Program-made: the position numbers and the translations under genes
Part shown: positions 6,334 through 58,667 of the stretch, piece by piece
Layout of the letters: each line of letters starts with the position of its first letter
Position numbering within the stretch: the stretch's first letter is position 1
Origin: Candidatus Bathyarchaeia archaeon
GTDB taxonomy: Archaea > Thermoproteota > Bathyarchaeia > Bathyarchaeales > Bathycorpusculaceae
Direction: 5' to 3'
DNA length: 64,000 nucleotides
Assembly (NCBI GenBank): GCA_049516875.1
Contig: JBEKSS010000001.1
Span: 224,001-288,000 of the forward strand
Notes under the pieces: model-generated
Told to the model about the DNA's origin: nothing
The model's database searches: none
The model's input: only the letters and a program-made list of their open reading frames with translations

Positions 6334-6911
6334 TGTTCATTCAAAATTGAAGTCCTGTTAAGATCAAATTGATTTTTAAGACTTGCGGTAGAAGCAACTG
6401 AACCGTGTTTTGAGTGGAATATACGTCTCTTTGACAGGCGCTCAATACGGATAAAGTGTGAAAGCTTAAAAGCAGATTCTAGCCGAGTCTAATCATAGGA
6501 CCTGCGGGCTCATTTCTCGAATATTCTGTAGCTGCGTCCTCCAACAAGAGAGGTTAACGTGGCAGTAGACGCGGTTTTTGATGAGGCACAAGCGTAGTGA
6601 GGCTTCACAGCAGAGACGATTCATCAAACGGTTGGTTATGTGCGCGCAAAAGACTTATGAAAATCTACGGTCTAGTCAGAACTTACCGTCTTGACTGCGT
6701 TGAACAGAACGTCGCATGGGCAAGCAGCCTGGTCAACTATTTTGAGCAGAAGGCTTCCGCAGGCACGGTTCTCGCATTCACAAGCGACCTTTCCGTTAGA
6801 GCGGTCATTAGCACAAACGTATACATTACAGGGGTCAATTTCACCGCCGAAAACATAGGGACCCAGAACATAAGAAACTTCACGCTTGCTCTCCAGGAAG
6901 CCTAGAGCGCG

Positions 6912-7184
6912 CGCTTAATCAAGCAGATAAGCTTCAAGACACTGCGACATTGGAAAGCTACTATGGAGTATCAGCGAACAAAAGACATTCTTCACGTCAT
7001 GAACGTACTCGGCCACAAGAACATCAAGAACACCCTTATCTACACGCACATGGTGAACTTGGAAGGCGACGAATACGTCTCAAAAGCCGCATGGAACCTC
7101 GAAGAAGCATGCAAGCTTGTGGACGATGGCTTCGACTACGTGACAGACATGGAAGGAGTCAAACTCTTCAGAAAACGCAAGTAA
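6912..7184 (+). pseudogene. Tyrosine integrase C-terminal fragment
   Basis: In-frame RLIKQISFKTLRHWKATMEY...LGHKNIKNTLIYTH carries the xxLRH, LGH and catalytic Tyr motifs. The N-terminal part is missing and the break lies at AGCGCGCGCT 6906-6915. Confidence 0.88.
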
Positions 7185-7214
7185 CATGCATTAGGGGGGT
7201 TCATCCAAAAACAT

Positions 7215-7274
7215 GTTGAAGGTGCGGGGGATGGGGTTTGAACCCATGCAGCCCTACGGCAACAGGTTTCTTAA
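7215..7274 (-). repeat. tRNA-Leu(TAA) 3' half (degenerate), att scar copy 2
   Basis: Reverse complement TTAAGAAACCTGTTGCCGTAGGGCTGCATGGGTTCAAACCCCATCCCCCGCACC covers the anticodon loop, long variable arm, T-arm and acceptor strand. No 5' half is present. Confidence 0.85.
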
Positions 7275-7511
7275 AACGGTGTCTGTTCCAACCAAACTGG
7301 TTTTTCTTTTCTGGGCAACGTTTTCCTAAGCCTGTCTCCTTTGGCCAAACTCGGACACCCCCGCGGATTGAGAGGGGTTCAGATGCTGAATCAGTATCTT
7401 CTTTTATATTTGTTTGGTCTTCCAAGGATGACATCCTAGTTTTGGTCTTCCTAAGGGTTATATTTGCTCAAATATCTATAATCAAATGGCAACAGCTCGG
7501 AGAAAGGCGAA

Positions 7512-8135
7512 GTGATTATGAAAAAAAAGTATAGTCAGCATAAAAGACAAGGAATAATTCGCGACCCCAAAGTCGAGAGAAAAGATTTGAAAGACACTGA
7601 GATGGCGCTTGTCTCAGAACTGATCAAGAACTCTAGAAGAAGTGACAGAGAACTCGCGAGGGCCATTGGAGTCTCCCAGCCGACAGTGAGCAGGATGATT
7701 AGGAAGCTGGAGAAAGAAGGAATTATAAACGAATACACTATGATACCCGATTTCAGAAAACTGGGGTATAATCTATGTGCGTTCATTTTCTTTAGACTGA
7801 AAGCTCCCATCGCCCCAGAGAGGATTAAATGGGCAAGAGAAGCCACAGCAGAAAGGTTGAGTCAGACTCCGTTTGTAATTCTGTTGCTTGAGAGAGGGAT
7901 AGGCTTAGACCGCGAAGCTGTGATGATCTGCCTCTACAAGGACTACGCATCGTATACTGAGCACAGAAACATAATTAGGGAATTCCCATTCCTCGTTCCT
8001 TCAGATGTCGATAGTTTTCTAATAGATCTTAACGACGAGGTCCATTATCGATACCTAACCTTCGCAAGCGTAGCCAAAGATCTCTTAAGATCAATAGACA
8101 AAGGGAATAGCCCTACAAGAAAAGAGGGTCCCTGA
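7512..8135 (+). CDS. Lrp/AsnC-family transcriptional regulator
   Basis: LIKNSRRSDRELARAIGVSQPTVSRMIRKLEKEGII...PDFRKLGY. Confidence 0.9.
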   Translation: MIMKKKYSQHKRQGIIRDPKVERKDLKDTEMALVSELIKNSRRSDRELARAIGVSQPTVSRMIRKLEKEGIINEYTMIPDFRKLGYNLCAFIFFRLKAPIAPERIKWAREATAERLSQTPFVILLLERGIGLDREAVMICLYKDYASYTEHRNIIREFPFLVPSDVDSFLIDLNDEVHYRYLTFASVAKDLLRSIDKGNSPTRKEGP

Positions 8136-8273: not shown

Positions 8274-8362
8274 CGGAAGCTTCTTTCGTGAAAGAAACTT
8301 TCAAGAGAGCACGCGCGCAGATTTATCTACACCTTGAGAATCATGAAATACAGGGATGTTGG

Positions 8363-10183: not shown

Positions 10184-10465
10184 CTTCAAGAGACCGCGGC
10201 ATCGACCCGTCTCTAAACTCGCAGCCCAGAAACCCGTTGAAACTTCCTTCCGTAAATCCCATACAACATACACGCACACGGCGAGAGTGCATGAGAAGTA
10301 TTTGTTAAATTTAGTGAGCAGCGAGCACTAGGCCTTACAACGACTCTCTGGACGATTTGTTGCCTCGGCGTTTATATGATTCCCTGTCCATTTGGTTTCA
10401 ATGATGTTTTTCCTTGCAGACAGACTTTTTAGTTGGTTTCGCCATCTACGAGTATTCGTGGTTGC

Positions 10466-10813
10466 ATGGCTGATAAAATTGAGGTTTACATTAGGAATGA
10501 AGAGGTTGTAACCGGTGAGGCTGTCTATGGGAAAGTCGTTGCAGAACACGGATGCCCTGTCGTAAGAGGTGTCAAAACTGAAAAAGTCATGCCTGAAGCC
10601 GATAGAACGGCTCTCGACGTTGTAAACCGTTTCGCAGATGACAAGGGATTGCAAGTCGAAATCTGCAGCCTCGGCACGTTTACTGGAAGATTGAAGGCTA
10701 GGCAGAAGGGGGTTAAGACGACACCCACGATAGTGATTGGCAAGTTCAGAATTGAAGGAGAACTCACTCCAGAACTGTTAAGAAGCAAGTTAGAATTAGC
10801 CTTGAAAGAATAG
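10466..10813 (+). CDS. Thioredoxin-fold-like hypothetical protein
   Basis: GVKTTPTIVIG cis-Pro-type motif, no CxxC. Confidence 0.6.
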   Translation: MADKIEVYIRNEEVVTGEAVYGKVVAEHGCPVVRGVKTEKVMPEADRTALDVVNRFADDKGLQVEICSLGTFTGRLKARQKGVKTTPTIVIGKFRIEGELTPELLRSKLELALKE

Positions 10814-10881
10814 TCTGAGTTACGGCTCGTTTCGACAGCTACGGGAATGAGGGTAGTGGGGAAAGTAGCGGGTTGAGAGGA

Positions 10882-10971
10882 GAAAGTTTGGTTTTGGATA
10901 AAACTGTACCGCACTACTCAAGTCATTCACACACGGGTAAAGTTTAGGTTTGGGATAAAACTTTACCCCAC
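10882..10971. repeat. Tandem imperfect ~32-bp repeat containing an 11-bp inverted repeat
   Basis: AAAGTTTGGTTTTGGATAAAACTGTACCGCAC and AAAGTTTAGGTTTGGGATAAAACTTTACCCCAC. The second copy forms GGGTAAAGTTT-N12-AAACTTTACCC. Confidence 0.7.
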
Positions 10972-11173
10972 CAACCAACCACTACCACAACCCACACCGC
11001 AACCTCTGCCTATCTGCACTCCTGCCACTGCACCTACCACTCCTCCTATACCTACCTATACCAGCACACACACGCACGCACACGGCGAGTGTGTGAGTGA
11101 AGCGCGCGTCTCCGAACGGCGAGGTCACCAGGTCTCTCCAAAATCCCCATTTTTATCTTTACTGAGGCGCACG

Positions 11174-11938
11174 CTACTCTTCAGAAATAGTCTCTATGAT
11201 AGCTTTCAAGAGGACCTCTGTGCTCTCTCTGACTGACTGGTCTCCAAAAGCTAGCTGCCACCCATTCTCAGTCAAGATATCAGAGATAACCTGCGCTGAA
11301 GCAGCCCTAACATTCCTGTATTTCGCAATTGCGAAAACAGCCGACGTCTCCATGTCCACCGCCAAGATTCCGGTTTCTTTGAACTTTCGAAGTTTTCCTC
11401 GGGTTTCTCTATAAGCTCCATCAGTCGACCAGACAGGGCCAATGAAGTGTCTGATTCTCTTCTCCTTCAGATGCTCAACTAGCTTGTCTCTAAGTGGAAT
11501 GTCGGACTCAACTTCCACTTCTGGTGAGAAATAATGGTGTGAGGTTCCCTCATCGCGAATCGCTCCAGTTACGACAACAATGTCGCCTGGTTGAAGGTAA
11601 GACTGTATTCCACCTGAGACGCCAACTTCAAAAACAGTCTTTGCACCACATGCGATGGCTTCCTCCAACGTGAAACCGGCTGCAGGAGCTCCTATCCAGA
11701 AGCGGCCAACTCCGACTTCTAAGCCGTCTACCTGTCCAACGCAGAAAGGCTGGCTTTCACCATAAAGCCATTCAACGCATTTTCCTTTGATCAGGTTTCT
11801 TGCACATTCAAACGTGCTTCTCTGGTAAGTCAATACAAGGCGCTGAGGGATTCCTAGCGATTCTATCGAGACCTTTTTGCTTTTGGCAGCATAGCTGACG
11901 ACATCAGATGGCTTGGAAACGGACTCGTCGTCGCTCAA
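11174..11938 (-). CDS. Nucleoside phosphorylase (PNP/UDP family)
   Basis: IGAPAA, AIRDEGTSHHY, WSTDGAYRET, VDMETSA. Confidence 0.92.
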   Translation of the reverse strand: MSDDESVSKPSDVVSYAAKSKKVSIESLGIPQRLVLTYQRSTFECARNLIKGKCVEWLYGESQPFCVGQVDGLEVGVGRFWIGAPAAGFTLEEAIACGAKTVFEVGVSGGIQSYLQPGDIVVVTGAIRDEGTSHHYFSPEVEVESDIPLRDKLVEHLKEKRIRHFIGPVWSTDGAYRETRGKLRKFKETGILAVDMETSAVFAIAKYRNVRAASAQVISDILTENGWQLAFGDQSVRESTEVLLKAIIETISEE

Positions 11939-12152
11939 TTCTCTCTCTACCCTTGCACTAATCTATCTGGTATGGTTCAGCTATATCCTTTCCGTACCAC
12001 TCCGCTGCGAACACCTGCTGTTTTGTCCAAGCAAAACATGAACAATCCCCTTTTCTTCTTAGCAACATGGCTTCAAACTGAAAACCACATATTTTTGCGA
12101 GAATTTCCCTAGGAAGAGCCTGTTGGACGCATAACATACGTGCCATGTTCTA

Positions 12153-12210
12153 GGTGCGGGGGGTGGGATTCGAACCCCCGCCACAGTGGCGACGTCTCCC
12201 GCAAAATCCC
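12153..12210 (-). repeat. tRNA-Leu 3'-end att scar, copy 3, plus arm
   Basis: GGTGCGGGGGGTGGGATTCGAACCC followed by the AGTGGCGACGTCTCCCGCAA arm motif. Confidence 0.8.
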
Positions 12211-12389
12211 TTTTTTCTTTTTTGCAGAAATAAATTGAGCCAACCAACTACGCCACGAACATTCGATGAAGCCTCCGAAAATGCGGGTGCTCTTTTTTTT
12301 GAGAACGATAGATTGAAATCGCACCTCTAATCATTTAGAATTGTTGGACGTGGTGTAAGCTGAATTCTAAGCTTCCGGCCGAGCCAATT

Positions 12390-15065
12390 TTGGTGGGCAG
12401 GGACCAAGAAATCAAACAGTTTACACAATACTTTGACTCTGCCATGAGGGGAAAGGGAGCCACCATATTCGCTTGTGGTGAGGCGGGAGTCGGAAAGACA
12501 AGACTGGTCAATGAGTTTTTGAACCAAGCAAAGAAAAAAGGAGCAAAAATTCTTCAGGGCTATTGCTTGAGCGAGGTGGACATACCCTACTTTCCTTTTA
12601 CAGAGGCATTTAACACCTATATGTCAGCGATGAGTGATGAAAAGGCGAAATCCTCCGTGACAAAGCAGCTGGGAATTACAGGATGGCTGAGAGGGTCTGG
12701 AATCACACGTGAAGCGAAAGCAAGTGAACTCTTTTCAACTCCAGAAATAGAACGAGACAGAACGTTTGAGGCAGTGGCAAGAGTTCTCCTTCAGCTGTCC
12801 ACTCAAGAACCATTAATCCTGTTTCTGGATGACTTGCAGTGGGCAGACCACCTAAGCTTGGCTATACTTCACTACTTGGCAAGGAAGTGTAGAAACTCTC
12901 GGCTTCTCATAATCGGCACGTATAGACCAGAAGACCTTGTTCACACTAAAGAAGAGAAACTCCATCCACTAGAAGAAATCATGTTTTCGATGAGTCGAGA
13001 AGACCTATTGGTTAAAATGGAGTTGAAACGCTTAAGGCGAAACGATTTCCCAGACTTTTTACGGTCAATCTTTCACTCTTCATTGGATGAAGCATTCGTA
13101 GAAAAACTGTATGAGGAAACTGAAGGCAACCCTTTTTTTGCGGTTGAGACGCTAAACCTCCTTGTAGAAGAAGGTTTCCTTTCAGAAAAAGAGGGTCGCT
13201 GGATGCTAATGGCTCCAACGGAGAAAATCGGAATACCTTCAAAGGTTCACGATGTCATCATTCGGAGAATCGCGAGACTCGAACGAGAAGAAAGAAAACT
13301 ATTGGACCTCGCCGCAGTCTGCGGTCATTCCTTCACTCCAGACACCCTAAGCAGAACCTTAGCTCTAGACATAGCCGATGTTCTGCAAGAACTGGTGGAG
13401 ATTGAACAGAGACACCGACTAATACGCTCCACTGACACAACATTTGAATTCACACACCAAAAAATAAGAGAAGTCATATACTCAAACTTGCCAGGCGAGT
13501 TAAGGAGAGTATACCATCTCAAAACGGCAAATTGCCTCGAACAAGCCCTCACCGAAAGAACTTCAGACGGTTACATAGCTGACATAGCCCTTCACTACGT
13601 CGAAGGAGCAGCTCCAGAGAAAGCGTTCGAATATCTTCTCAAACTTGGCGAAAAAGCTGTAAACATCTTTGCAAACATGCAAGCAATAGATTATCTAGAC
13701 AAGGCATTAGAAGCCACACAGAAAAATGCAAACCTTGCCCAGGGTGAAAATCTTGTTGAAATCTACAAGCTCAGAGGCAGAGCTTGGCTGAGTCAAGGAG
13801 AAATGGCAAAAGCTAGCAACGATTTCAATTTGTTGCTACAAAATGCTACTTCCATCGGTGATGAATCAATGATTGCAGAAGCGCACTATTGGCTAGGTTA
13901 TGCTCTAACGGGGCTAGGAAAAATAGATGAGGCTAAGCTACATCTTACAAGAGCGCTGGAAATCGCGCGAAAGATAGGCAATAAACACGTTGAAGCTGGA
14001 AGTCTACTTCAACTTGTCGAATCGCTCTTTGTATACGCAGACACCATGGAAGAAGCTCTTATGCAAATTGAAGAGTCGCTTAGAATATGTAGAGAGATAA
14101 CGGACAGAGTCCTCGAAGCCAAATGCCTCGGTTACCTCGGATTCTACTATGACTGGAAAGGCGAGTTCAAGCAAGCCAAAAAAAACATCAATGAGGCGTT
14201 GGCGTTAGCTGAGGAAATGGACGATAACCCCGGAAAAATGTGGGCATTATTGCTTTCGGGCATGGTTCATGCTGGTGAAGGGGAATACGATGATGCCATT
14301 TCAATCTTACAAAGATGTCTCCAACTCTCCCGAGATTGGGGCATTGTTTTTTTCGTTCCGCGAGCCCTCAATGTCCTCGGTTGGATTTATCATGACTTAG
14401 GAGACATCGAATTTGCAATTAAATACAACAACGAAGGACTAAAAATTACCAGAATACACCAAGAGAGTATGGGCATATCCGGAGTGCAGCTAGCTTGTTT
14501 AGTAAATCTAGGAATGGACTATCTACACAAGAACGATTATGGAAATGCAAAGAAGTACTTCCAAGAAGCAAACAGCGTGATTCATTTACATCCAATGGCT
14601 AAGTGGCGTTTCGAAACTCGTATACTTCTAGGTCTCGTTGAAATATCACTCGCTGAGGGCGATTATTCACAAGCACTAAAATTCGGTGAAGACTCTTTAG
14701 CCATATCTGAAAAGGCAGGCGCCAAAAAATACATATCCAAAAGTTTGAAGTTAAAAGCTGAAATACTCGCAAAAATGGGCAAAACCGAGGAAGCAATCGA
14801 GCTAATGCAGAACGCCTTGAAATTTGCACAAGAGGTTGGCAACCCACCGCTCCTTTGGCAAACACATTATTCTCTCGGGCTTTTGCTCGAAAAACAAGGT
14901 AACCTACAAAAAGCCAATGAACACTATGCCCAGGCCATAGCCCGCATGGAAGAGACAGCATCAAAACTCAAAGATGAATCCCTTAAGAACAGTCTGTTAA
15001 CGGCTCAACAGACAAAGGCAATATACGACGCTTACGCCAAAACAAAACCGACTTCTAACACCTAA
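12390..15065 (+). CDS. STAND-type (AAA_16) ATPase with C-terminal TPR repeats
   Basis: VGRDQE, Walker A GEAGVGKT, Walker B LFLDDLQWAD, TEGNPFF, FTHQKIRE and a long TPR array. Confidence 0.92.
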   Translation: MVGRDQEIKQFTQYFDSAMRGKGATIFACGEAGVGKTRLVNEFLNQAKKKGAKILQGYCLSEVDIPYFPFTEAFNTYMSAMSDEKAKSSVTKQLGITGWLRGSGITREAKASELFSTPEIERDRTFEAVARVLLQLSTQEPLILFLDDLQWADHLSLAILHYLARKCRNSRLLIIGTYRPEDLVHTKEEKLHPLEEIMFSMSREDLLVKMELKRLRRNDFPDFLRSIFHSSLDEAFVEKLYEETEGNPFFAVETLNLLVEEGFLSEKEGRWMLMAPTEKIGIPSKVHDVIIRRIARLEREERKLLDLAAVCGHSFTPDTLSRTLALDIADVLQELVEIEQRHRLIRSTDTTFEFTHQKIREVIYSNLPGELRRVYHLKTANCLEQALTERTSDGYIADIALHYVEGAAPEKAFEYLLKLGEKAVNIFANMQAIDYLDKALEATQKNANLAQGENLVEIYKLRGRAWLSQGEMAKASNDFNLLLQNATSIGDESMIAEAHYWLGYALTGLGKIDEAKLHLTRALEIARKIGNKHVEAGSLLQLVESLFVYADTMEEALMQIEESLRICREITDRVLEAKCLGYLGFYYDWKGEFKQAKKNINEALALAEEMDDNPGKMWALLLSGMVHAGEGEYDDAISILQRCLQLSRDWGIVFFVPRALNVLGWIYHDLGDIEFAIKYNNEGLKITRIHQESMGISGVQLACLVNLGMDYLHKNDYGNAKKYFQEANSVIHLHPMAKWRFETRILLGLVEISLAEGDYSQALKFGEDSLAISEKAGAKKYISKSLKLKAEILAKMGKTEEAIELMQNALKFAQEVGNPPLLWQTHYSLGLLLEKQGNLQKANEHYAQAIARMEETASKLKDESLKNSLLTAQQTKAIYDAYAKTKPTSNT

Positions 15066-15091
15066 GGAAAAGCGACCCCAAATTTGCAGGG

Positions 15092-15150
15092 TGGTGCGGG
15101 GGATGGGGTTTGAACCCGTCTCCGAGTGGCGATGCCTCCCGAAATCCGCC
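15092..15150 (-). repeat. tRNA-Leu 3'-end att scar, copy 4 (with CCA), plus arm
   Basis: Shares GGTGCGGGGGATGGGGTTTGAACCCGTCTCCGAGTGGCGATG with copy 1. Confidence 0.85.
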
Positions 15151-15332
15151 ATCACATGACCGTTTTCTTCTGAGAAAAGAAAGGTCAAACTGGCTTAAAA
15201 GGACCGATAGAGGATAATTCTACAATTTTCTCCCATTTACTCGGAAGCAGTTCCCTTTGCTTTTTCTGTGTATTTTACAACACCCAGTTCTTCGTATATT
15301 TCCAACAAGTTTGAGGCTCCCCAATTAAGCTG

Positions 15333-16001
15333 TTATTTTAACTCAAAAGTATGGACAGTCTTGAGTTTTGGATGTTTCTTGAATAAATGAGCGTTCACTA
15401 GCTCTATGGAATCAACAGTCATTTTTCCAAACTCTGTATCCCTCAGCTTTTCTAGGTAGCTGATTAGTCTGGTGAAATCTTCTTTCTTCTGAAAATGCAT
15501 TATGCTGATGTGAGGCAAAAAACTTGGATAATCAAATTTCCTCTTTCTTATCTCGGGTATTGCCTGCAGTCTTCTATGTATCTCTTCAATCTTGTCCCCA
15601 TCATGAACCTCCACAAAGACAACATCTGGGAAAATGTTGAGTTTAGAAAGGAATACATCAAATTTGCTGAATTGTTGTAAAACTTCTTTCGCTTGATTGA
15701 TTATTCTCTGCAAGTTCTCAACCAAAATATCGTCTTCATATTCTTCTGATTTTGCCAAGAATCCAAGCCCCATTACAGATATGTGAAAATAGTCTTTCGG
15801 GAAGGGAGCAACACAAGAAATAGTGGATAGCCACCTCTGAATCTCAACTATCTTCTCAATCAGTCCCGCATCTCTAATCCTTACATGAAAAGTCAGATAT
15901 TGATTTCTTCCTTTAGCCCATTCATTGTCAACCCAATATTTCGTTAGATTCAATTGGACGTTCTTTCTTCTTTCCCAAACATCTGTAAATCTGTCGCTCA
16001 T
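15333..16001 (-). CDS. 2H phosphoesterase (2'-5' RNA ligase/LigT-like)
   Basis: Two HxS motifs: YFHISV and LPHISI. Confidence 0.85.
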   Translation of the reverse strand: MSDRFTDVWERRKNVQLNLTKYWVDNEWAKGRNQYLTFHVRIRDAGLIEKIVEIQRWLSTISCVAPFPKDYFHISVMGLGFLAKSEEYEDDILVENLQRIINQAKEVLQQFSKFDVFLSKLNIFPDVVFVEVHDGDKIEEIHRRLQAIPEIRKRKFDYPSFLPHISIMHFQKKEDFTRLISYLEKLRDTEFGKMTVDSIELVNAHLFKKHPKLKTVHTFELK

Positions 16002-16258
16002 ACATTCAATTGACAGTCTTTCTTACCTAAAGTCTTTTTGAACTATGCGGTTCAGCTATAACTTTTCCGCAAAATCGAAAGTTCTTTTAGGACTCGGTGA
16101 CACTCTTCTCGTAAGACAAAGATGGAAACCTGAAAATTAACCAGTTGGTTAAAAAATGGCACATGCAGTTAACGCGCGCGCCTGCTCATGGCGGGGTGCC
16201 ACTGGCCATGGCGATGGCACTGGAGGTGTGTAGGTCTTACGGAGCTCCGCTTTATGGC

Positions 16259-16987
16259 CTATTGCGAGGGTCGTTTTGAGCCAGGCTTCGGCAGGAAGCA
16301 TGTCTCCGTAGCCAATGACCCATATATCTTCTTGATAAGTCGCAACCCCGATTTGCGATCCAGGCCCGGCTTCCAGCACCTTGCCAACAGGTCCCGTGCT
16401 TTCATGTCTCCGTAGCCAATCGCCCAAGCGTCACACTCGGCCTGAGATCCCAGTACGTCTATGTCAGCAATCTTCTGGACCCCGTCGTCAAACCCTCCGA
16501 GGAGAACGAAGAGAGCAAGCGGTCGGTTGACCGTGCTCACCGCGTGCTCGTGGAGGATGCCCCGAATCCTGTGTGCTGCATCCCTGAATGTCTGGATGTC
16601 CTCGCTCGTAAGCACATCATGAACATGGAACATGTCTCCCTTATTGCCAGTGGCCACGAACGCCAGCGATTGGGCTACGTGCCAGACCGAAGGAATCTCG
16701 CTCCTCAATCCTGGCTTGACAGAAGCTTTCCCTTTGGCTATGAGCAGCCCATCCGTCGTCTTCATCGCGATAGCGAGGTTGCCGCCTGATGGACACTTCC
16801 GTGCCCACTCCACCTGGAGCAGTCTCCCCTCTGGCGTGAACATGCCGGGCTTGGCAAACTCCGAGCTCTCGGGAAGCGGCTGGTATTTGCTCGGCGTTCC
16901 AATGCATGGTTTTGCCCTAGCCATCGAACTCACCTGTTGAATGAATGCGCGATGCGTTATTTCAAGCTTTTTCTGCCATCCTTCCAC
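16259..16987 (-). CDS. Divergent proteasome alpha-subunit-like protein, possibly 5'-truncated
   Basis: MFTPEGRLLQVEWA...AIAMKTTDGLLIA matches the alpha N-terminal signature. RPLALFVLLGG and AWAIGYG also match. The segment is visibly more GC-rich than its flanks. Confidence 0.75.
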   Translation of the reverse strand: MEGWQKKLEITHRAFIQQVSSMARAKPCIGTPSKYQPLPESSEFAKPGMFTPEGRLLQVEWARKCPSGGNLAIAMKTTDGLLIAKGKASVKPGLRSEIPSVWHVAQSLAFVATGNKGDMFHVHDVLTSEDIQTFRDAAHRIRGILHEHAVSTVNRPLALFVLLGGFDDGVQKIADIDVLGSQAECDAWAIGYGDMKARDLLARCWKPGLDRKSGLRLIKKIYGSLATETCFLPKPGSKRPSQ

Positions 16988-17091
16988 ACCAAACTGTCTT
17001 TCTCCCGCGCGCGCAAAATCGAGAAAAACCCAGACGGCTTCATAACCGTGAGAAAGGAGGCTTAAACACGGCCTCTTTTTCTTTTTTTAAG

Positions 17092-17286
17092 ATGAGTTTC
17101 AAGAAGCCGCAGGTTATGCTTATGCTTTCCATTGCCGTGTTGATGTTCGCTCTTGACTGGCTTTTTCTTTGGATAGACGATTTGCAGAGACTCAAGAAAG
17201 GAAGGTTAGTCATCAGCGCGCACAAAGGAATGGCGCTTACAATAGAGAAAAATGCGGATAACTCTGCAACCATTCACAAAGCCTAA
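17092..17286 (+). CDS. Small membrane protein (hypothetical)
   Basis: One hydrophobic helix. The start is uncertain. Lies between GCGCGC sites 17007 and 17356. Confidence 0.35.
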   Translation: MSFKKPQVMLMLSIAVLMFALDWLFLWIDDLQRLKKGRLVISAHKGMALTIEKNADNSATIHKA

Positions 17287-17448
17287 GACCCTTCTTTTTT
17301 TGCAACCTCTACATTTTTCAGTCAATCTAACCCTAGCCCCTATACTCCTTTCCTTGCGCGCTAGACATTGAATCCAAAAGCACAGAGCAACCAGAATAAT
17401 TGTTTAAATATGGATTATGTGCAATGAAGATAAAGAGGGACGCGGTTA

Positions 17449-19107: not shown

Positions 19108-19218
19108 CTATCACGTACTTGGCACGATTGTCGTCTATGGCAATTTGATGACGGTTAAGCATTAGGTCTTGATGGCCCTCTCCGACCAAGACAGCGCGCG
19201 TTAACAGATCGAGCTGCC

Positions 19219-22593: not shown

Positions 22594-23202
22594 CTACTCT
22601 ATGCTTATGGGTTCGCCCCTAGGCGGTTTTCCATCTTTTGCTCTTGGCAAGGTGACCTCCAGCACACCGTTCTTGTACTGCGACTTTGCCTCTCTCACCC
22701 TGACTTTCCCAGGCAAAGAGACCTCCTTGAAGTACTTGCGCTGAGGGGTGTCCACCATTATGGTCAAAGTGTCCTCGGTTCCGCTCAGCTTTATGTCCTC
22801 CTTCTCAACGCCTGGCAGTTCAGCCACAACCTGGATTTCACCGTTCATCTCAACTATGTCCACCAGAGGCTCACGCTCCTCCTGCACGTGGGGAAGTCCG
22901 TTTCGCCTCGGCTTGACGTTTCCAAACTCGCGGATTTTAGGCTTCCCGTCAGGACCCACTTTCATACTGTAGCCGTACACGAAAGGCCCAAACTCGCGCG
23001 CTGTCGAACCGTCCGGCAGTCTACGCTCCCTCACGTAGTCTTTGGGAACTCGGGAAGCGAAATCTCTGAACTCTTCTTCCATCATCTTCTCCATCTCTTC
23101 GAAAATCTTGTCAACATCATCAAAGCCCCAGTCTCTGAAGAAGGGAGATCGCCTCTTCCTGTACCACTCTGGATCATCCTCCGAAGGCATCGCATCCATC
23201 AC
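22594..23202 (-). CDS. hsp20: Archaeal small heat-shock protein Hsp20
   Basis: FGPFVYGYS, REPLVDI, VAELPGVEKEDI, YKNGVLEV. Confidence 0.95.
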   Translation of the reverse strand: MMDAMPSEDDPEWYRKRRSPFFRDWGFDDVDKIFEEMEKMMEEEFRDFASRVPKDYVRERRLPDGSTAREFGPFVYGYSMKVGPDGKPKIREFGNVKPRRNGLPHVQEEREPLVDIVEMNGEIQVVAELPGVEKEDIKLSGTEDTLTIMVDTPQRKYFKEVSLPGKVRVREAKSQYKNGVLEVTLPRAKDGKPPRGEPISIE

Positions 23203-25642: not shown

Positions 25643-25943
25643 GACCGTAGACTGTTTACAGGGCCAGTGGAAACTTCTTTCTCCCAGATAATATACAGAG
25701 AACGGAAATTTAAACGTTCTGAAAAATGGAAAATCATAAAAAATGGCTAGAATGGATACGGGTGGAGAGAAAAAGACGTTTATTGTCTGAAAAAGGATCT
25801 GCAGTTGCCCGTTCTCTTGCGTCTGACTATACTGATAACCATGCCAAAAGCTGCAATAGCAGTTGCGTAGTAGGCGAGCGGAGGGCTGGCAGGCGTTTTC
25901 GCGAAGGAAACGGAGTAACCTCCTACTGGTCGAGGGCGCACGC

Positions 25944-26118: not shown

Positions 26119-26272
26119 GGTCTTACCCTTCTCCTCCCCGTGATTTTGTAAGTGTCATGCGCCAGCTTTTAAGAATTGTGGAATTAAGTTCTATCTGACG
26201 TACAACAGTTCAGAAATCAAATTACGATGCACCTGTGGATGGGCGGCCTCCATTTTCCCATGATTGGCGCGC

Positions 26273-36591: not shown

Positions 36592-36611
36592 ACTAGAAAA
36601 AGAGAGTGGGT

Positions 36612-37191: not shown

Positions 37192-37806
37192 CTAGGTTGA
37201 ACTAAGTTGTGGAGGATTGCTGGGAGGCGGAGGTTTAACGCTTGTTTCTTCTTGGTGGACTCGCCAAGCACAAGCTATTCCTACGACTAACGAGACAGTT
37301 CCAGCAACCGCTAGGCTAACAGAATATCGGGCATAAGGATAATCTACAAGCGCGCGCACGCCGCCTTGACCCCAGAAATACCAAGTCTGCTGATAAAGGG
37401 TTGAGAGCATTCCTAATACCAAGAATAGTACACCTGAGATTATTCCTATGATGCCAATTAGTTGGTAATACGCTATCTTCGGAAGCTCACTTTCTGGTAA
37501 CTTTCTTTCTCTAAATGCCAACGCACCACCAACAATCAGCAAGATGAAAGGGAGTATCCCGAAAGGGGATGAAACAATCAAAGCCAACACGCCAGAGATA
37601 ATTAGAATCGCTCCACCTTTCCCATTACCTACCACACCACCGACTATACCCAGAATCCCTGCTAGGAAAGCCAAGACTATATTTATGGTCAAACCCGTAT
37701 CAACCGCTCCGTTTGCTTGATTAATTACCATTACCAAAAACGCCAATATGCCCATCACGAACGAGAAAACTCCACCCAGAACCCCCAAAAGGAAACTACG
37801 TTTCAT
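37192..37806 (-). CDS. Multi-pass membrane protein
   Basis: About six Gly-rich hydrophobic helices. Confidence 0.75.
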   Translation of the reverse strand: MKRSFLLGVLGGVFSFVMGILAFLVMVINQANGAVDTGLTINIVLAFLAGILGIVGGVVGNGKGGAILIISGVLALIVSSPFGILPFILLIVGGALAFRERKLPESELPKIAYYQLIGIIGIISGVLFLVLGMLSTLYQQTWYFWGQGGVRALVDYPYARYSVSLAVAGTVSLVVGIACAWRVHQEETSVKPPPPSNPPQLSST

Positions 37807-38275
37807 TTGTCTTTTTCACCTTTTGTCCCCATAATCACATGACAAAGGTGCTGTTTAAGTCTTTGTCTCATTCTTCAGGTGTATTCTAGAGTAGTTTTTT
37901 TCTCTTCTACACTTTCGAAATAATGTTGATAGCTAGTTAGCGGCTAGAGCATGGGAAAAGACCAGAACTTCAATGCGAAAAATGTAATGCCATTTCGAGG
38001 GTTCCAAGTGAAGAGAAATAGAGGATACTTCTACTACTCTTTTTAAGCCAGTTTGGCCTTCATATTACTGGCGACAGACATGGAAAAGCAAAATATCCAT
38101 GCCTGTGGAAACAGCTACTTAAGAATAACTGTCTCTTTCGGCAACATGTGCCTCTTTCATTCATTTCTGTTCTCTAAAGAGTTACTTTTCATGAATCTCC
38201 TCAGCGTATTAGACCTTACTCCTAGCAATTTGCTGGCTATTTCCAGCGGGCGCCTCAAATCCATGTGGCATGCAT

Positions 38276-49954: not shown

Positions 49955-50479
49955 ATGACTAAACGCGGATTGTATGTTGGAAGATTTCAGCCTTTTCATC
50001 TGGGTCACCTCAGCGCGGTAAAGGCTGTTTTGGAGGACGTTGATGAACTCGTGATTGCCGTTGGTAGCGCACAGTACAGCCACACTACAGCCAATCCCTT
50101 CACTGCAGGTGAGAGGTTGACGATGGTTCGTTTGGCATTGGAAGAGGCGCGTCTGGATAGTAGGCGAGTTTGGGTCGTGCCCGTGCCTGATGTGCACTTG
50201 CACATGCTTTGGGTTTCCGCTCTGGAGGGATACACTCCTAAGTTTGAAATTGTGTATTCCAATGAGCCTTTAACGCGAAGGCTTTTCACGGAAGCTGGGT
50301 ACAAGGTGAAGGCGATTCAGTTTTTCGAAAGGAAGGTCTTCTCTTCGACCGACATCAGGGCGAAGATGGTTGAGGGTGAGAGCTGGAAGAATCTTGTTCC
50401 AAAGAGTGTGGCCGCTTTCATAGCAGAGATAGACGGGGTCAACAGGCTCAGCGATTTGACGAAGAGTGACAAGGCTTAG
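49955..50479 (+). CDS. nadM: Nicotinamide-nucleotide adenylyltransferase
   Basis: GRFQPFHLGH, NPFTAGER. Confidence 0.96.
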   Translation: MTKRGLYVGRFQPFHLGHLSAVKAVLEDVDELVIAVGSAQYSHTTANPFTAGERLTMVRLALEEARLDSRRVWVVPVPDVHLHMLWVSALEGYTPKFEIVYSNEPLTRRLFTEAGYKVKAIQFFERKVFSSTDIRAKMVEGESWKNLVPKSVAAFIAEIDGVNRLSDLTKSDKA

Positions 50480-50558
50480 CGCGCATGTGGGTAAGCAACG
50501 AGATCAGCAACGTCGGATAGAAGGCAGATAGAGGGCTTGCACTTTTTGATTCCAGACG

Positions 50559-51423: not shown

Positions 51424-52143
51424 ATGCTTATGTTCAAAAAACTGCGGGCGAGAGAAGTTGCGTTGGCCGCATGCTTCGCCGCCTTGTATGTTGTTCTCTC
51501 TTTCGTGCCCATGTTTCATCTGCTCGGAGCCTTCCAAAGCATAACTGTAGCGGCGATAATGGTGCCTCTAATCGGACTCATGTTAGGAGCCTACATAGGA
51601 GCCTTGTCGGCGCTCTTGGGCGGAATCATCAGCTTGTCCCTCAACCCCAGCCTGTTCTCACCGATGAGTCTAGCAGCAGGAGTAGTCGGGGCTGTATGCG
51701 CAGGCCTACTGTACACGAACAGACGGGCCTTATGTGCCCTCACGTACATGATCCTCCTTCTCATCTTTGGTCTGTACCCTTCGGTCGGGCCTATTTGGAT
51801 CTTTCCACAAGTCATGTGGTTCCACGTAGTGGGGCTCTTCATCCTCATTTCGCCGTTACAATCAACCGCGTCAAGCAACTTCAAATCCGCCAAAGCCACA
51901 AGACTGCTTTTCGCATTCTTTGTGACTTGTCTAGTTTCAACCCTAGCCGGCCAAATCGCAGGCAACATCATCTTTGAAACCATACCCATAACAGACCCAC
52001 GTGGAACTTGGCTTGCCCTCACCTTTGTTTATCCTTTTGAACGCACGATTATCGCAATAATCGCAGCCTTCATCGGTGTACCCTTGTTCGAAGCTTTGAA
52101 GGCGACAAATTTAATCAATGCAACTCAGCGACTGAGAAAGTGA
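51424..52143 (+). CDS. ECF-transporter S-component-like membrane protein
   Basis: ALAACFAALY N-terminal motif, multiple TM helices, YPFER. Confidence 0.72.
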   Translation: MLMFKKLRAREVALAACFAALYVVLSFVPMFHLLGAFQSITVAAIMVPLIGLMLGAYIGALSALLGGIISLSLNPSLFSPMSLAAGVVGAVCAGLLYTNRRALCALTYMILLLIFGLYPSVGPIWIFPQVMWFHVVGLFILISPLQSTASSNFKSAKATRLLFAFFVTCLVSTLAGQIAGNIIFETIPITDPRGTWLALTFVYPFERTIIAIIAAFIGVPLFEALKATNLINATQRLRK

Positions 52144-52271
52144 ATGTTGCACATAGTCTACTGGTAACCGTGCACGCGGATTAGACGAACATGCTGATGA
52201 GAGAAGATGCAAAGAGCGAAGTTAGCAATGACCGAAAGTGATATTAGCCATCTTATCCGAATCTTGGAAGC

Positions 52272-52460
52272 ATGATCTTTGGATCGAGAGTTGCGGGTAC
52301 AGTCATCGTCGGTGTCGGCTGGCTGGCCTTCATCCTGATCTGGCTTGCATTCTACGCTGGAAACTTTGATTTTTGGCAAAACCTAGCTATGCTCTTGGTC
52401 TCTGTGATTGTCGCCATTGGCATAGTTGCAGTAATCTGGATAAAGTGGGCGCTCGGCTAA
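52272..52460 (+). CDS. Small two-TM membrane protein
   Basis: GWLAFILIWLAFYAGNFDFWQNLA. Confidence 0.7.
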   Translation: MIFGSRVAGTVIVGVGWLAFILIWLAFYAGNFDFWQNLAMLLVSVIVAIGIVAVIWIKWALG

Positions 52461-53109
52461 TCTTTACAAACGTCAAGACCGCATCGAGAACGAACAACAA
52501 GGTAAAGAGCGCGCTACTAGTCATGTCTTCGATAGACATCTTGAATGACTGAGGCATACGCATGGGCAAAGAAGAATGTGACCCATGATTCTCTTGCCCT
52601 GAAGTCTTCAGAGCGAGGAAGGGCTGATGAATTGTGAACATCTCTTTTTTAGCGCATCCATTATCGAAAAGTATCATTCAAGAAACTGAGCTTCACCAAT
52701 AAGTAGGTAACTTTTTCCTAACGCCATAGCCACACTAGCATTCCATGGATTCTCTTCTACAGGGCGTCTAACAAATCTCTTTGGCGTTAAAGGCAGGAAT
52801 TTGCCCACAATTGTTTCCTCAAGAACTTTTTCCGAAGGACAACAACACAAAATCGCTAATGCCTTGTTGGCGTTGCATGAGTAACACTCATGGTCTCCTG
52901 GACCACCCACAGGAGCGCGCGCTAATCTAGAAGCAGCAAACGGATTGCATCTGATGCGTTGAGGGAACTAACGAGCGGTGCTGTCAAGAAAAGGTTGAAA
53001 TGATCGTCGTCCTGACACTTTGAAGGGTACATATAGAACTCAGCCGCCGGCATGACTTGTACAACACATATAATTGCTGACAGTAGCCCCGGACGGGTTG
53101 CATGAGTGA

Positions 53110-53526
53110 TCATAACGCTTCTTGAGAGAAGGCTCTGATTGTTTCGTAAACTGATGTTGCCGCGGCAATGCTGATGACTGCCAGTGAGAATATATATTCT
53201 CTTGTTAATGTTGGCGGTCTGAGAAAAACCGCTAGCATCACCAATGAAGTTACCAAGAATATCATGTAGAAAAAATTCCGCGGGATGAGAATTCTCCGTA
53301 AACGGATGAGATTCTCCAAGATTATTCGATCTGCAACATACCCATTCAATTCCTTCTTAATCAGTCCCGCTTCTTCAAGCTTATTAATGTGGTAAAGCGC
53401 AAGGGTGGGACTGCTCAGGTTCAACGCCCTTTGAACCTCGCGGATGCCGACTGGTTTATCATTCTTTAGAATGAACCTGTAAACCTTCAGCGTGAGACCT
53501 CTCAGAACGTCCTTCTGCTCGCTCAC
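53110..53526 (-). CDS. Membrane-tethered HTH regulator
   Basis: GIREVQRALNLSSPTLALYHINKL plus two C-terminal TM helices. Confidence 0.88.
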   Translation of the reverse strand: MSEQKDVLRGLTLKVYRFILKNDKPVGIREVQRALNLSSPTLALYHINKLEEAGLIKKELNGYVADRIILENLIRLRRILIPRNFFYMIFLVTSLVMLAVFLRPPTLTREYIFSLAVISIAAATSVYETIRAFSQEAL

Positions 53527-54754: not shown

Positions 54755-54823
54755 TCACCGCCCCCCGTACACTTCTCACCCAATGAAAACAGCTGCAAGC
54801 AATTGCATCTGTAAGTGCGCGCT

Positions 54824-55875: not shown

Positions 55876-55894
55876 GTTATTCCTTCCTCTGGTT

Positions 55895-57271
55895 TTACAA
55901 GACCACTATCACGCACACATCATTGACATTTGTGCCCGTAGGTCCAGTGAAGAGGAGATCGTTCAGCTTCGAGAAGAAACGATACGAATTGTTTTCGGCC
56001 AGAAACTTCTCAGGGGCCAATCCCATTCCCAATGCTCTCTCCACTGTTTTTCCGTCCGCAACTGCTCCCGCAACGTCAGTTGGACCGTCTACACCGTCCG
56101 TGCTCAAGGAAGCAACTACTACCCCGTCAGACCCTTGGAGTTTGAGAGCAGCGGCCAAAACTAGTTCCTGATTTCTTCCGCCTAACCCTTTCCCCGTGAC
56201 GGTCACGGTTGTTTCTCCACCGGCAACTATACCCGCGGGTTTCGGAACTGGATTCCCAGACGCTGTGACTTCCTTGCCTATAGCCGTCAACATGACGCCA
56301 ACGTGACGCGCTTCGCCTTCCAACGTCGCGGTCAACAAAAGCGTGTTCAAATCTGCCGATTTCAACTGCCCACAGGCTGCCAAGCTTGACGATCTGTTAT
56401 TTCCCACGACAACATTGCAGACATTCTTGAACGCTTCATCATCAGCCTTAGGAGTCTCCTGAACAAGTCCCTTTTCACCCTCTGACAAGACATTTCTAAT
56501 CGACTCTGGAGCTTTAGCCCACAGACTGTACTTTTTCAAGACTTCTATGGCGTCGTTGAACGTTGTCGAGTCCGGAACAGTCGGGCCTGAAGCTATGAAG
56601 TCAAGTGGGTCGCCCACAACATCGGAAAGGATGAGGTTCAGAATCGTCGCGGGATAAGCCTTCTTGGCCAGCCAGCCGCCCTTGAAATCTGAAATGTGTT
56701 TTCGCACCGTGTTAACTTCGTTAATCGTTGCTCCTGACTTCAGCAAGGCCTGTGTCATTTCCCTCTTGTCTACTAGTGAAATGTCCCCGCGTGGCAGAGG
56801 CATCAGACTCGAACCGCCTCCTGAAATCAGACAGATAACCAAGTCGTCCCTTTCTGCACGTTCCACTATGTTCAGCATGCCCCGCGTTCCTTCAACTCCT
56901 GCCTCGTCTGGAACGGGATGACTCGCCCCATGAAGCTTGATTTTACTCGTTTTGTTCTTAGTGCCATGAGGAACGTTGACAAGCCCGCCTGTTATCCGCT
57001 TGCCCAGAATCCCCTCAAGCGCTTCGGCCATTGATCCGCTCGCTTTGCCGCCGCCTACAACGTAAACATTCTTCAGTTTCTCCAAATTGAAAGAGTGCCC
57101 ATCAACCCTCAGCTTCGAGTTCTCGAGGAGAAGCTTGGATTCGAGCATCCGTTTTGGATCAACCGCGTTCAGGGCAGCTTCAAGACTTTCAAGAGCCAAT
57201 TTCCTCGCTTTCTGGTTGCGCCGAGTTTCACCGTTCTCGATAAGCTTTCCCTTGTTCTTTATTGCAATCAT
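55895..57271 (-). CDS. gck: Glycerate 2-kinase (MOFRL family)
   Basis: GGGKAS, SHPVP, ISGGGS, KGG, GGETTV, GGRNQE, TGTNVND. Confidence 0.94.
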   Translation of the reverse strand: MIAIKNKGKLIENGETRRNQKARKLALESLEAALNAVDPKRMLESKLLLENSKLRVDGHSFNLEKLKNVYVVGGGKASGSMAEALEGILGKRITGGLVNVPHGTKNKTSKIKLHGASHPVPDEAGVEGTRGMLNIVERAERDDLVICLISGGGSSLMPLPRGDISLVDKREMTQALLKSGATINEVNTVRKHISDFKGGWLAKKAYPATILNLILSDVVGDPLDFIASGPTVPDSTTFNDAIEVLKKYSLWAKAPESIRNVLSEGEKGLVQETPKADDEAFKNVCNVVVGNNRSSSLAACGQLKSADLNTLLLTATLEGEARHVGVMLTAIGKEVTASGNPVPKPAGIVAGGETTVTVTGKGLGGRNQELVLAAALKLQGSDGVVVASLSTDGVDGPTDVAGAVADGKTVERALGMGLAPEKFLAENNSYRFFSKLNDLLFTGPTGTNVNDVCVIVVL

Positions 57272-57367
57272 CCGAATGGCCCATTGTAATTTCTTCAAAG
57301 GTTAATGCGTAAGTGTAATAAGTCAATACTAATAAAGAATTCCGCAAATCAATGTCTGGTGAACCAT

Positions 57368-58372
57368 ATGCCTAAACTGAAGATTTACGTCACACGACAA
57401 CTGCCAGAAAGAGGCTTGAGAATAATAAGGAAGTACTTTGACGCTGAAGTCTGGCCCGAATACGCCCCACCGCCCAAGAAGACCATAATAGAAAATGCCA
57501 AGAACGTGGACGCCCTCGCAACACTTCTGTCTGACAAGATAGACGCTGAAGTTTTTGAAGCCGCACCGAAACTAAAGATTATTTCACAGCTGGCGGTAGG
57601 CTTTGACAACATAGACATACCAGAAGCCACAAAAAGAGGCATCTACGTCACGAACACTCCTGAAGTGCTAACGGACACCACCGCAGACTTCGCGTGGGCC
57701 CTGCTTATGGCTGTTGCAAGACGAGTCGTGGAGGCAGACAAGTACGTTCGCACCGGACAATGGAAGGTCGGCTGGCACCCCGACATGATGACCGGCCGAG
57801 ACGTTCACGACGCGACCATAGGCATCGTCGGCGCTGGCAGAATAGGCTACGCCATGGCAAAGAGAGCAAAAGGGTTCGGTATGAAAATCCTCTTCTACGA
57901 CGTCATCCCCCGACCAGAAATGGAAAAAGACTTCGGCGCGAAGCGCACCGACATTGACACGCTCCTGAAAGAAGCGGACTTTGTCACCGTTCACGTCCCG
58001 TTGATGAAAGAGACACACCATCTGATGAACGAAGAGAAGCTTAGACTGATGAAGAAAACAGCTTACTTGATAAACAATGCACGCGGCCCAGTTGTTGACG
58101 AAAAGGCCCTGTACAAGGCGTTAAAAGAAGGCTGGATCGCAGGTGCAGGACTGGACGTTTTCGAACAAGAACCAGCACAAATGGACAATCCACTTCTCAA
58201 GTTTGATAACGTCGTGGTCGCCCCACACATCTCAAGCGCGAGCCTCGAAACCCGCTCGAAAATGGCTGAAATGGTTGCGGACAACCTCGTCTCTTTCTTT
58301 GAAGGAAAGAAACCGCCGAACCTCGCCAACCCAGACGTGATGAAGATTCGACCTTTGGCTAAACAAATCTGA
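57368..58372 (+). CDS. gyaR: Glyoxylate/hydroxypyruvate reductase
   Basis: AVGFDNID, VTNTPEVL, GAGRIG, NNARG, LDVFE, PHISSA. Confidence 0.93.
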   Translation: MPKLKIYVTRQLPERGLRIIRKYFDAEVWPEYAPPPKKTIIENAKNVDALATLLSDKIDAEVFEAAPKLKIISQLAVGFDNIDIPEATKRGIYVTNTPEVLTDTTADFAWALLMAVARRVVEADKYVRTGQWKVGWHPDMMTGRDVHDATIGIVGAGRIGYAMAKRAKGFGMKILFYDVIPRPEMEKDFGAKRTDIDTLLKEADFVTVHVPLMKETHHLMNEEKLRLMKKTAYLINNARGPVVDEKALYKALKEGWIAGAGLDVFEQEPAQMDNPLLKFDNVVVAPHISSASLETRSKMAEMVADNLVSFFEGKKPPNLANPDVMKIRPLAKQI

Positions 58373-58667
58373 AAGCATCAGTCCCAGCCCGACAATGCCC
58401 TCGCGCATCCTTCCCCACATCTTTTTCTGACGTCATTTAACGCCTAGCGCGCCGAATTCGTTTCACGTCTCAATGAATTTCGGGATCCCTTCCAGAGCCT
58501 GTCTGGGCCCCATCGTTCCAAACGCAATGTATGTGAAGCCTGAGACATCCTCCACCCAAATACATGGGATGCTTGTTACTGGACAATTTGAACATGCATT
58601 GACAGCAAGAAGAAGTAAAATAGTTAAATACTCATTCTTTTCTACCTTTAATTTCCTTCAAGACTAG

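Follow-up and report, generated by a model that had tools for sequence, protein, structure and literature searches.

The fillers known from DNA end joining are the N-nucleotides of terminal transferase, the templated insertions of polymerase theta, and the non-templated additions of bacterial LigD, and they are either random or copied from nearby DNA. Recurring palindromes are known from other settings: the attC sites of integrons are imperfect hairpins of 55-140 bp that are recombined by IntI, and, to our knowledge, the cyanobacterial word HIP1 (GCGATCGC) is spread through coding and non-coding DNA alike and has not been reported as confined to the latter. One study links HIP1 to two orphan methyltransferases, and the terms GCGCGC, archaea, and intergenic occur 0 times in its text (PMC4390886). 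Here, we describe a run of alternating G and C, (GC)n, in a 64,000-nucleotide stretch of the genome (G000) of a peat-bog archaeon of the class Bathyarchaeia (G000:C1:224001-288000, hereafter the window). The run is over-represented in this genome, is far denser in non-coding DNA, and lies at the joints of variable segments more often than at shifted control positions. Judging from sequence comparisons, it may be a self-complementary stretch that illegitimate end joining leaves behind, as filler or scar, in this lineage and several others of the class, a reading to which we give an even chance. The literature searched, supplementary files aside, contains no description of the word in archaea, nor of such filler chemistry.

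Within the window, the octamer GCGCGCGC has seven exact matches (6907, 16174, 17007, 29395, 30114, 37350, and 52915) against 0.58 expected from 100 dinucleotide-preserving shuffles, none of which (0/100) reached seven. The decamer AGCGCGCGCT occurs four times (6906, 29394, 30113, and 52914; 0.06 expected), the hexamer GCGCGC gives 32 overlapping matches that form 25 maximal runs (11.07 matches expected, 19 in the largest shuffle), and the one-mismatch form GCGCACGC occurs five times (4498 on the minus strand, 11167, 25936, 37354, and 44975; 1.13 expected). All octamer and decamer coordinates in the initial annotation proved correct, as did its 12 extra GCGCGC sites and the GCGCACGC copies at 11167 and 25936, the only two it had listed; further hexamers lie at 17216, 22996, 24283, 33934, 41218, and 44256. 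The excess that it had estimated for this stretch holds genome-wide. G000 (2,430,117 bp, 20 contigs) contains 447 octamers and 98 decamers, and counted on both strands the 894 octamers compare with 46.6-61.3 expected under Markov models of orders 0-3, or ~25-30 per strand, a ~15-19-fold excess. The word is the top-ranked over-represented octamer of the genome, its own extensions rank next, and the seven copies of the window fall below the genome mean of ~11.8 per 64 kb.

Other dinucleotide octamers have 13-73 copies each in G000, which rules out general dinucleotide slippage. An over-representation of 15-78-fold does not fit a restriction site under avoidance or modification, and no cognate enzyme was identified. 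Among maximal runs, 212 have the form GCGCGCGC versus 28 with the form CGCGCGCG, and runs of n = 4, n = 5, and n = 6 number 212, 48, and 1, respectively. Isolated GCGCGC runs (345) are not above the ~440 expected for all GCGCGC words; since the hexamer alone shows no clear excess, the signal resides in the 8-10-mer.

According to our own, crude gene calls for G000 (2227 genes, 79% coding), 369 of the 447 octamers are non-coding and 78 are coding, corresponding to an 18-fold higher density in non-coding DNA; six GC-rich palindromic hexamers that served as controls gave non-coding/coding ratios of 0.47-1.5. Within non-coding DNA alone, 365 copies stand against 4.7 expected (order 1). The copies clump along the genome (per 10 kb: mean 1.8, variance 5.7, maximum 14, with 97 of 232 bins empty), and the run-rich stretches have low coding density and many small genes. 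In a comparison with 465 kb of a relative (G003), the non-coding DNA of segments with G000-only genes holds 53 octamers in 70.4 kb, versus 4 in 22.7 kb of core-core intergenic DNA, i.e., between neighbouring orthologues (p = 0.001); a narrower core-core count gives 1 octamer in 12.5 kb. Densities per kb of 0.72, 0.63, and 0.96 in tandem, divergent, and convergent intergenic regions rule out a promoter or terminator signal, and densities of 0.5-1.0 per kb across all length classes from 50 bp up rule out an effect of intergenic length.

The relatives G002 and G004 align over ~103 kb at 94.6-95.0% identity, and 24 indel or replacement events separate them. A variable-segment joint was counted if it lay at most 6 bp from a (GC)n run, with shifted positions as controls: 12 of 74 joints did so, compared with a mean of 1.31 and a maximum of 4 in 32 shifted controls. 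When the printed joints were read directly, 15 of the 24 events had a perfect run at the joint in at least one allele. Eleven events have a short allele, six of these with a run at the joint, namely CGCGCGCGCG (902 bp in the other genome), CGCGCGCG (1312 bp), CGCGCGC (313 bp), GCGCGC (224 bp), GCGCGCG (1076 bp), and GCGCGCGCG (24 bp by alignment, ~38 bp by eye). One more has a one-mismatch run (CACGCGC; 2545 bp in the other genome), and four have none, two of which resemble empty sites of insertions. Long variable segments often open or close exactly with a run; for example, a 16.2-kb segment starts with AGCGCGCGCT, and a 1089-bp segment of G002 has runs at both ends. At the flank that both alleles share, the run is missing from the other allele in at least eight events. 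The replaced segments have no common ends, and long alleles that were swapped for a bare run have no run at either end. The run marks joints, yet not as a target common to both partners: the initial annotation was right to place it at accessory DNA and its joints, and the part of its proposal in which the run is a pre-existing shared target was not supported.

Eight of these events were compared with the outgroups G000 and G003. The unbroken long allele of the 2545-bp event is present in both, so the short CACGCGC allele is a derived deletion. For the 313-bp event, G000 has the long allele and the CGCGCGC short allele is derived, and for the 1076-bp event, G000 has part of the segment beside a pre-existing run, so this deletion began next to that run. 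The 1933-bp insert of G002 corresponds to an empty site in G003, and the empty site of G004 is without the motif.

Deletions beside a pre-existing run are what would be expected if a nuclease or recombinase recognised existing (GC)n sites, with the breaks leading to deletions and DNA capture and the site surviving on one side. The 1076-bp segment of G004 ends in ...TTAA-GCGCGCGC-CGCG where G002 retains GCGCGCG, an indel of ~640 bp lies directly after CGCGCGCGC/CGCGCACGC, G002 has AAGCGCGG where G004 reads TA-GCGCGCGCG, and an integrase fragment is cut against a run in both the window and G004, the cut points being different. The patchy, family-structured distribution of the word is also like that of restriction-type systems. 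We nevertheless consider site-specific cutting unlikely, since the run is missing from the other allele in the eight or more events described above, bare runs have replaced long alleles that carry no run at either end, all four genus-level empty sites (see below) are without the motif, and neither a C5-methylase in G000 nor a candidate nuclease was identified, no search for specific restriction-enzyme families having been made.

Window DNA is also found in peat and wetland sequencing runs, and strain-level joints were read from these (X4, X5, X7, and X9) and from metagenome contigs (L051, L052, L053, L058, L063, and L079); read-derived joints with sides below 30 letters (e.g., 10968->16051) and uncovered parts of the window were left out. 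At 29394..29403, AGCGCGCGCT is the sole filler (the window reads ...GTTGAA-GCGCGCGC-TAACC...) where sister strains hold 502 bp (L053 and L079) or 4553 bp (L052) instead. Sister-strain contigs in X5 and X7 skip nine letters of the window at this joint (29394->29404) and have 502 letters in between, and an independent assembly (X4 record 8) has the window form with 0 differences over 28819-29800. The long alleles of all three contigs have no run at either end. In L052, these 502 bp are joined by an element of 4.05 kb that encodes a tyrosine integrase of 445 aa (PF00589; locus coordinates 5304-6641, +). The element sits inside the 502-bp segment, at a different short repeat (ATCTCCCG/CTCCTCCCG), and has three runs in its own non-coding DNA. 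The 502-bp allele of L053 and L079 carries a small winged-helix-like open reading frame (ORF), as read from its translation. A second joint of this kind is the one-mismatch GCGCACGC at 25936..25943, which coincides exactly with a deletion joint: at 25935|25936, L052 carries a further 1071 bp, with GCGCAC templated by its right flank, and L058 is without 25845-25966, its joint ...CATGC-GCACG-CGAAATGG reading as the one-mismatch run GCGCACGC.

The same comparisons bear on whether the joints could be assembly or sequencing artefacts at GC-rich palindromes in metagenome-assembled genomes. All compared genomes are of this kind, and short reads can cover GC-rich palindromes poorly. Against this, an 8-10-mer is far below assembler word length, window joints recur with 0 differences in an independent assembly from another sample (X4 records 8, 3, and 2), contig L051 matches the window at 99.98% over 17,915 bp, alternative alleles recur in two sequencing runs and three separate contigs, and the excess is present in dozens of genomes; an artefact is thus highly improbable.

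If the runs are end-joining scars, (GC)n with n = 3-5 would be deposited or retained wherever a deletion, an insertion, or a one-sided segment replacement was joined. Broken ends would gain alternating G/C tails or a self-complementary GC linker, and, because (GC)n pairs with itself, any two DNA ends could anneal and then be sealed. Replacements with a run at one joint would be anchored by homology on the other side (homology-facilitated illegitimate recombination), and an existing run could be reused as microhomology, giving deletions that start right beside it. The runs would then decay by transitions and would build up only where indels are tolerated, hence their intergenic and island bias. 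A bolder version, in which a dedicated putative DNA-joining activity in several Bathyarchaeia lineages writes a fixed (GC)n at every illegitimate joint, thereby drives gene capture and deletion in flexible regions, and leaves a legible scar each time, is in our judgement less likely than not.

Flank information around the runs of G000 does not extend beyond positions +-2 to 3. The base 5' of the run is A in 72% and the base 3' is T in 64%, giving the typical form A-GCGCGCGC-T, and the flanks are unique for 335 of 388 runs of length 8 or more. Unconserved, mostly unique flanks rule out both a longer repeat or miniature inverted-repeat transposable element around the run and attC-type sites, and paired runs acting as hairpins are ruled out by only 44 neighbouring pairs within 40 bp, with no favoured spacing. 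TA flanks occur on 135 of 424 run sides (TTA 14.6%, CTA 7.1%) and on both sides in 23 of 212 runs, the two sides being independent. This bias towards YTA...TAR, together with fragments bracketed by runs on both sides (the 1089-bp segment of G002 and a 276-bp gene fragment at C7:14339-14633), could reflect the footprint or terminal stub of an unrecognised cut-and-paste element, e.g., one with a TA target, or restriction-cut incoming fragments. An origin of this kind is improbable given that the replaced segments have no common termini, that TA on both sides is confined to these 23 runs, that no extension besides GC stands out after TAGCGC, and that so many flanks are unique. The same two-sided count and the lack of shared termini do not fit a Tc1/IS630-type excision footprint.

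At genus distance, the window was compared with relatives that are 78-89% identical. Private segments lie at 10184-17356, 25724-26970, 28842-30211, 35939-38116, 51427-53115, ~58372-58618, and 61560-62543. Empty sites at this distance are without GCGCGC in four of four cases, and the runs sit within the inserts; these sites are uninformative on joints, since it is the derived or variable allele that carries the run. Window homology breaks beside runs at 6919, 17356, and 50478, which supports the link to joints made in the initial annotation. Its suggestion of integron-like swapping between pre-existing copies fared badly, since none of the four empty sites holds a copy and at least eight events have the motif in one allele only. 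Nor is the motif the joint of the mobile inserts themselves: the integrase element of L052 and the insert at 35939-38116, with its 13-bp repeat, use other joints. The integrases found in the genome and the sister strain are only generic PF00589 proteins or fragments, and no IntI-specific search was made.

Truncated genes also adjoin the runs. In a blastx search of the surroundings of 388 runs against G000's own proteins, 23 truncated paralogue fragments end between -10 and +5 bp of a run, compared with ~12 in other 15-bp bins (range 4-19). The window's AGCGCGCGCT at 6906..6915 abuts a 5'-truncated tyrosine-integrase fragment; blastx homology to full-length paralogues begins at 6918 and homology to G004 at 6919, so the proposed coincidence of runs with truncation points was borne out for the run at 6907. 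The C-terminal fragment of this phage-type integrase (6918..7184, +) covers PF00589 profile positions 126-168 of 172 (E 2.4e-5) and, being a fragment, stays under the curated cut-off; contig C14 has a 295-aa paralogue with a score of 63.6 bits. The copy in G004 extends 65 nt further and abuts GCGCGCGCG, and three further truncated copies of this integrase family in G000 adjoin runs at different positions (blastx). An Hsp20 pseudogene (G000:C12:66816-67189; L048 6816-7189), 52-61% identical to the intact Hsp20 gene of the window (22594-23202), has a +2 frameshift inside a (GC)n run.

The excess is present in all five genomes of the genus that were searched. The decamer AGCGCGCGCT has 98 copies in G000, 29-115 in the four other same-genus genomes, and 63 in G021, which belongs to another genus; most remaining genomes of the family and order have 0-1. 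In an even sample of the class, 17 of 251 genomes, from five families, have at least 20 decamers, with at most 5 copies of the backward control. The distant families f26 and f35 share the phase and the A flank of G000. Run positions are not conserved between species in the genus-level alignments of the window.

None of the enzyme families searched tracks the word. The C5-methylase family PF00145 has 0 matches in G000, and N4/N6 methylases (PF01555) occur in 38 of 41 relatives irrespective of the motif; the suggested link to a GCGC methylase could not be shown. Gyrase A was found in 6 of 251 genomes, all of one genus with 0-4 decamers, and is absent from motif-rich genomes. Ku is rare in archaea; G000 has a homologue (C9:92481-93017, 139 bits), as do G002 and G004.

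Several observations weigh against the filler reading. Ku was found in 6 of 41 relatives: it was not found in the motif-rich G001, G003, and G021 (77%, 93%, and 98% complete) and is present in the motif-poor G010, G020, and G040, which argues against Ku/LigD nonhomologous end joining as the source of the filler. Among the same 41 relatives, the reverse transcriptase domain RVT_1 occurs in none, the PolX palm in six (not in G000, G001, G002, G004, or G021), and Prim-Pol in three, without tracking the motif. There is no run in 9 of the 24 G002/G004 events or at 62 of the 74 joints, polarity was settled for only two to three of the eight events and four of the eight could not be polarised, and at genus distance only 3 of 91 window breakpoints (6919, 17356, and 50478) lie within 6 bp of a run (controls: mean 0.53, maximum 2), a weak signal because breakpoints are blurred at that divergence. 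Three joints align the run with a TG/CA-containing alternating tract of the other allele, and part of the filler may therefore be templated, as these alignments suggest. A filler model accounts neither for the preference for A...T flanks nor for the sharp fall in run number beyond n = 5, every genome compared is a metagenome assembly, and the gene calls of G000 are crude. Finally, some sites changed by point mutation: at one intergenic site, the window has CGTGCACG where L053 has CGCGCGCG, without an indel, and five of eight aligned window sites, including 22995 and 24283, differ in L052 by a single transition.

Two alleles of one site that differ by a point change are also what one would expect of an iterated palindrome like HIP1, which would be made or kept by point-mutation pressure (methylation-linked, or through mismatch-repair bias) or selected because it acts at the DNA level, for instance in protein binding or as Z-DNA, the breakpoints being secondary. 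The first rank of the octamer palindrome in over-representation fits this idea, as do the runs at 19194, 29368, and 33934 that are conserved among strains, the recurrence of the same word and flanks in distant families, and the count of 365 perfect copies in the non-coding DNA of G000, where each one-off variant has 20-114. We think it quite unlikely, since it leaves unexplained both the exact coincidence with breakpoints (12/74 versus 1.3) and the bare runs in place of 24 bp-1.3 kb, while the depletion in conserved intergenic regions and the lack of positional conservation at genus distance argue against fixed functional sites, and no C5-methylase was found in G000. The commonest internal one-off variants in non-coding DNA are of the G-to-A type, so this part of the initial annotation is real; they are no specific sign of 5-methylcytosine deamination, transitions also being the default class of mutation. 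The end-joining scar is the reading that we retain.

The remaining runs of the window lie in or near variable DNA, coding genes, and repeats. GCGCGC at 8313..8318 is 17 bp into a variable stretch that begins just after a tRNA (8197-8270); homology to G002 and G004 stops at 8296 and resumes at ~8954-8972. An accessory island of 7.2 kb (10184..17356) contains runs at 11102, 16174, 17007, 17216, and 17356 and a near-run at 11167; it is missing from G003 and G004 and is skipped by sister-strain contigs in X7 and X9. Its genes encode a PNP_UDP_1 phosphorylase, an AAA_16+TPR STAND ATPase, a 2'-5' RNA ligase, and a proteasome-like protein. The STAND-type ATPase of this strain-specific island (12390-15065) has 891 aa, with AAA_16 and many TPR repeats, and may form a defence or signalling module with the 2'-5' RNA ligase-family protein and the divergent proteasome-like protein. 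GCGCGC at 17356..17361 is ~75 bp from the right joint of the island, and homology to G002 starts exactly at 17356; at this locus, G002 has a different insert, the 1933-bp one, with the same right end and with GCGCGC opening its left joint.

GCGCGCG at 19194..19200 lies in a variable region 90 bp downstream of a tRNA and is kept in L052 and L053; homology to G004 ends at 19099. This tRNA match (18992-19104) spans 113 nt compared with a 71-position model and is followed directly by variable DNA, and its length suggests that the gene bears an intron. The search for known RNA families in the window returned two tRNAs only. Coding copies are CGCGCGC at 22995..23001, inside the Hsp20 gene, and GCGCGC at 24283, 33934, 41218, and 44256, inside called genes.

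Two hexamers neighbour a repeat: GCGCGC at 26267..26272 is directly beside the copy at 26273-26423, and GCGCGC at 19874 is 16 bp from its inverted partner at 19895-20045. The repeat family (TTTTGACACTCAAAGAAATCACGGATTGAGTACTCAAACACAAGG..., ~60-130 bp) has 67 blast matches in the genome and ~10-fold read depth, and it includes GAGTACTC, an intergenic palindrome that is likewise over-represented. The 6.4-kb stretch separating the two window copies is inverted in L053. The islands that hold (GC)n runs also contain a second repeat, which has the core GGGGTAAAGTTTTATCC and is located at ~10955 (-) in the window and at C1:78730-84543, C14, C9, and C8:631-2255 elsewhere in G000. This core resembles a B recognition element (BRE)/TATA promoter and lies between (GGTTTGG)n and (CCAAACC)n, which allows the repeat to form a hairpin. 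The 12-mer core has 35 exact copies, and copies are often 15-85 bp from a (GC)n run and beside simple repeats, e.g., (CA)n, (CT)n, and (ACG)n.

An accessory insert of 1.37 kb (28842..30211) with runs at 29368, 29395, and 30114 encodes a VapBC-type toxin-antitoxin pair, comprising a PIN domain toxin (29418-29810) and a MazE/AbrB-type antitoxin (29803-29997). The insert is missing from G002 and G003, where the empty sites are without the motif. AGCGCGCGCT at 30113..30122, ~85 bp inside its right edge, reads GCGCACGC in L052 and has the perfect form in L053. The window-specific insert of 2.18 kb at 35939..38116 is flanked by the 13-bp direct repeat TTAAGA(G/A)TAACTG and has GCGCGCGC at 37350 internally, not at its joints. 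Its ORFs at 36013-36591, 36612-37271, and 37192-37806 have no Pfam match, and short stretches (~36570-37180 and 37897-37940) are repeated many times across all relatives.

GCGCGC at 50479..50484 starts on the final base of a stop codon, that of the gene at 49955-50479, and homology ends beside it, at 50479 in G002 and G004 and at 50478 in G003; the same intergenic region has ACGCGCGCGCT in G004 and ACGTGCGCGCT in G002, at other positions. A window-specific segment of 1.69 kb (51427..53115) with GCGCGC at 52509 and AGCGCGCGCT at 52914 has empty sites without the motif in G002, G004, and G003. GCGCGC at 54817..54822 lies 10-15 bp before homology to four relatives resumes (54832-54839) and is counted only at a tolerance of 15 bp. 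GCGCGC at 58447 is inside a window-specific intergenic insertion of ~245 bp (58372..58618).

In L053, unrelated sequence of similar length replaces the 3' portion of a small gene of secreted or pilin-like type (30940-31281); the swap also occurs between G002 and G004, with flanks 95-97% identical, and this cassette-like replacement has no (GC)n run at all. Compared with L052 and L058, the contigs L053 and L063 have a much more divergent intergenic region at 27705-27808, with flanking genes 94-96% identical, which suggests a foreign allele imported by recombination.

If the scar reading is correct, each (GC)n run would be the datable scar of one rearrangement, and past gains and losses of genes could be traced from the sequence itself in an archaeal class that is uncultured and abundant worldwide. 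The reading would also imply an end-joining chemistry whose filler is self-complementary and fixed in sequence. With 17 of 251 genomes in five families, the patchy distribution offers sufficient contrast to look for the enzyme by gene association. When these genomes are annotated, the word can serve as a flag for pseudogene fragments and island boundaries.

The word shares features with several described systems. Like HIP1, it is an 8-bp GC-rich palindrome that is the most over-represented word, lineage-specific, and without conserved flanks; unlike HIP1, it is 18-fold denser in non-coding DNA, concentrated in flexible regions, and located at indel breakpoints. DNA uptake sequences (DUS of Neisseria and USS of Haemophilus) are also short, lineage-specific words with about one copy per few kb, and they are enriched in core DNA, whereas this word is scarce in conserved intergenic regions and accumulates in flexible DNA. 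The extragenic, palindromic elements of the REP/BIME type (associated with RAYT transposases) likewise reach hundreds of copies; REPs are imperfect palindromes of 20-40 nt with conserved sequence, whereas here nothing is conserved beyond +-3 bp (a RAYT gene was not searched for). Integrons resemble these islands in that small accessory genes are separated by a recurring palindromic element and tyrosine recombinases lie in the same regions; the element here, however, has 6-10 bp, the empty sites are without the motif, and one intact integrase element uses other joints. Transposon excision footprints and the 2-4-bp duplications left by trapped type II topoisomerases are comparable as small palindromic or duplicated scars at a repaired break, but no element ends were found here, gyrase is absent from the motif-rich genomes, and duplications cannot explain kilobase deletions. 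End-joining filler shares with the run that a short extra sequence, missing from both parental flanks, stands at the joint of a deletion or insertion; the differences are that Ku, PolX, and Prim-Pol do not track it and that the sequence at these archaeal joints is one defined, self-complementary word.

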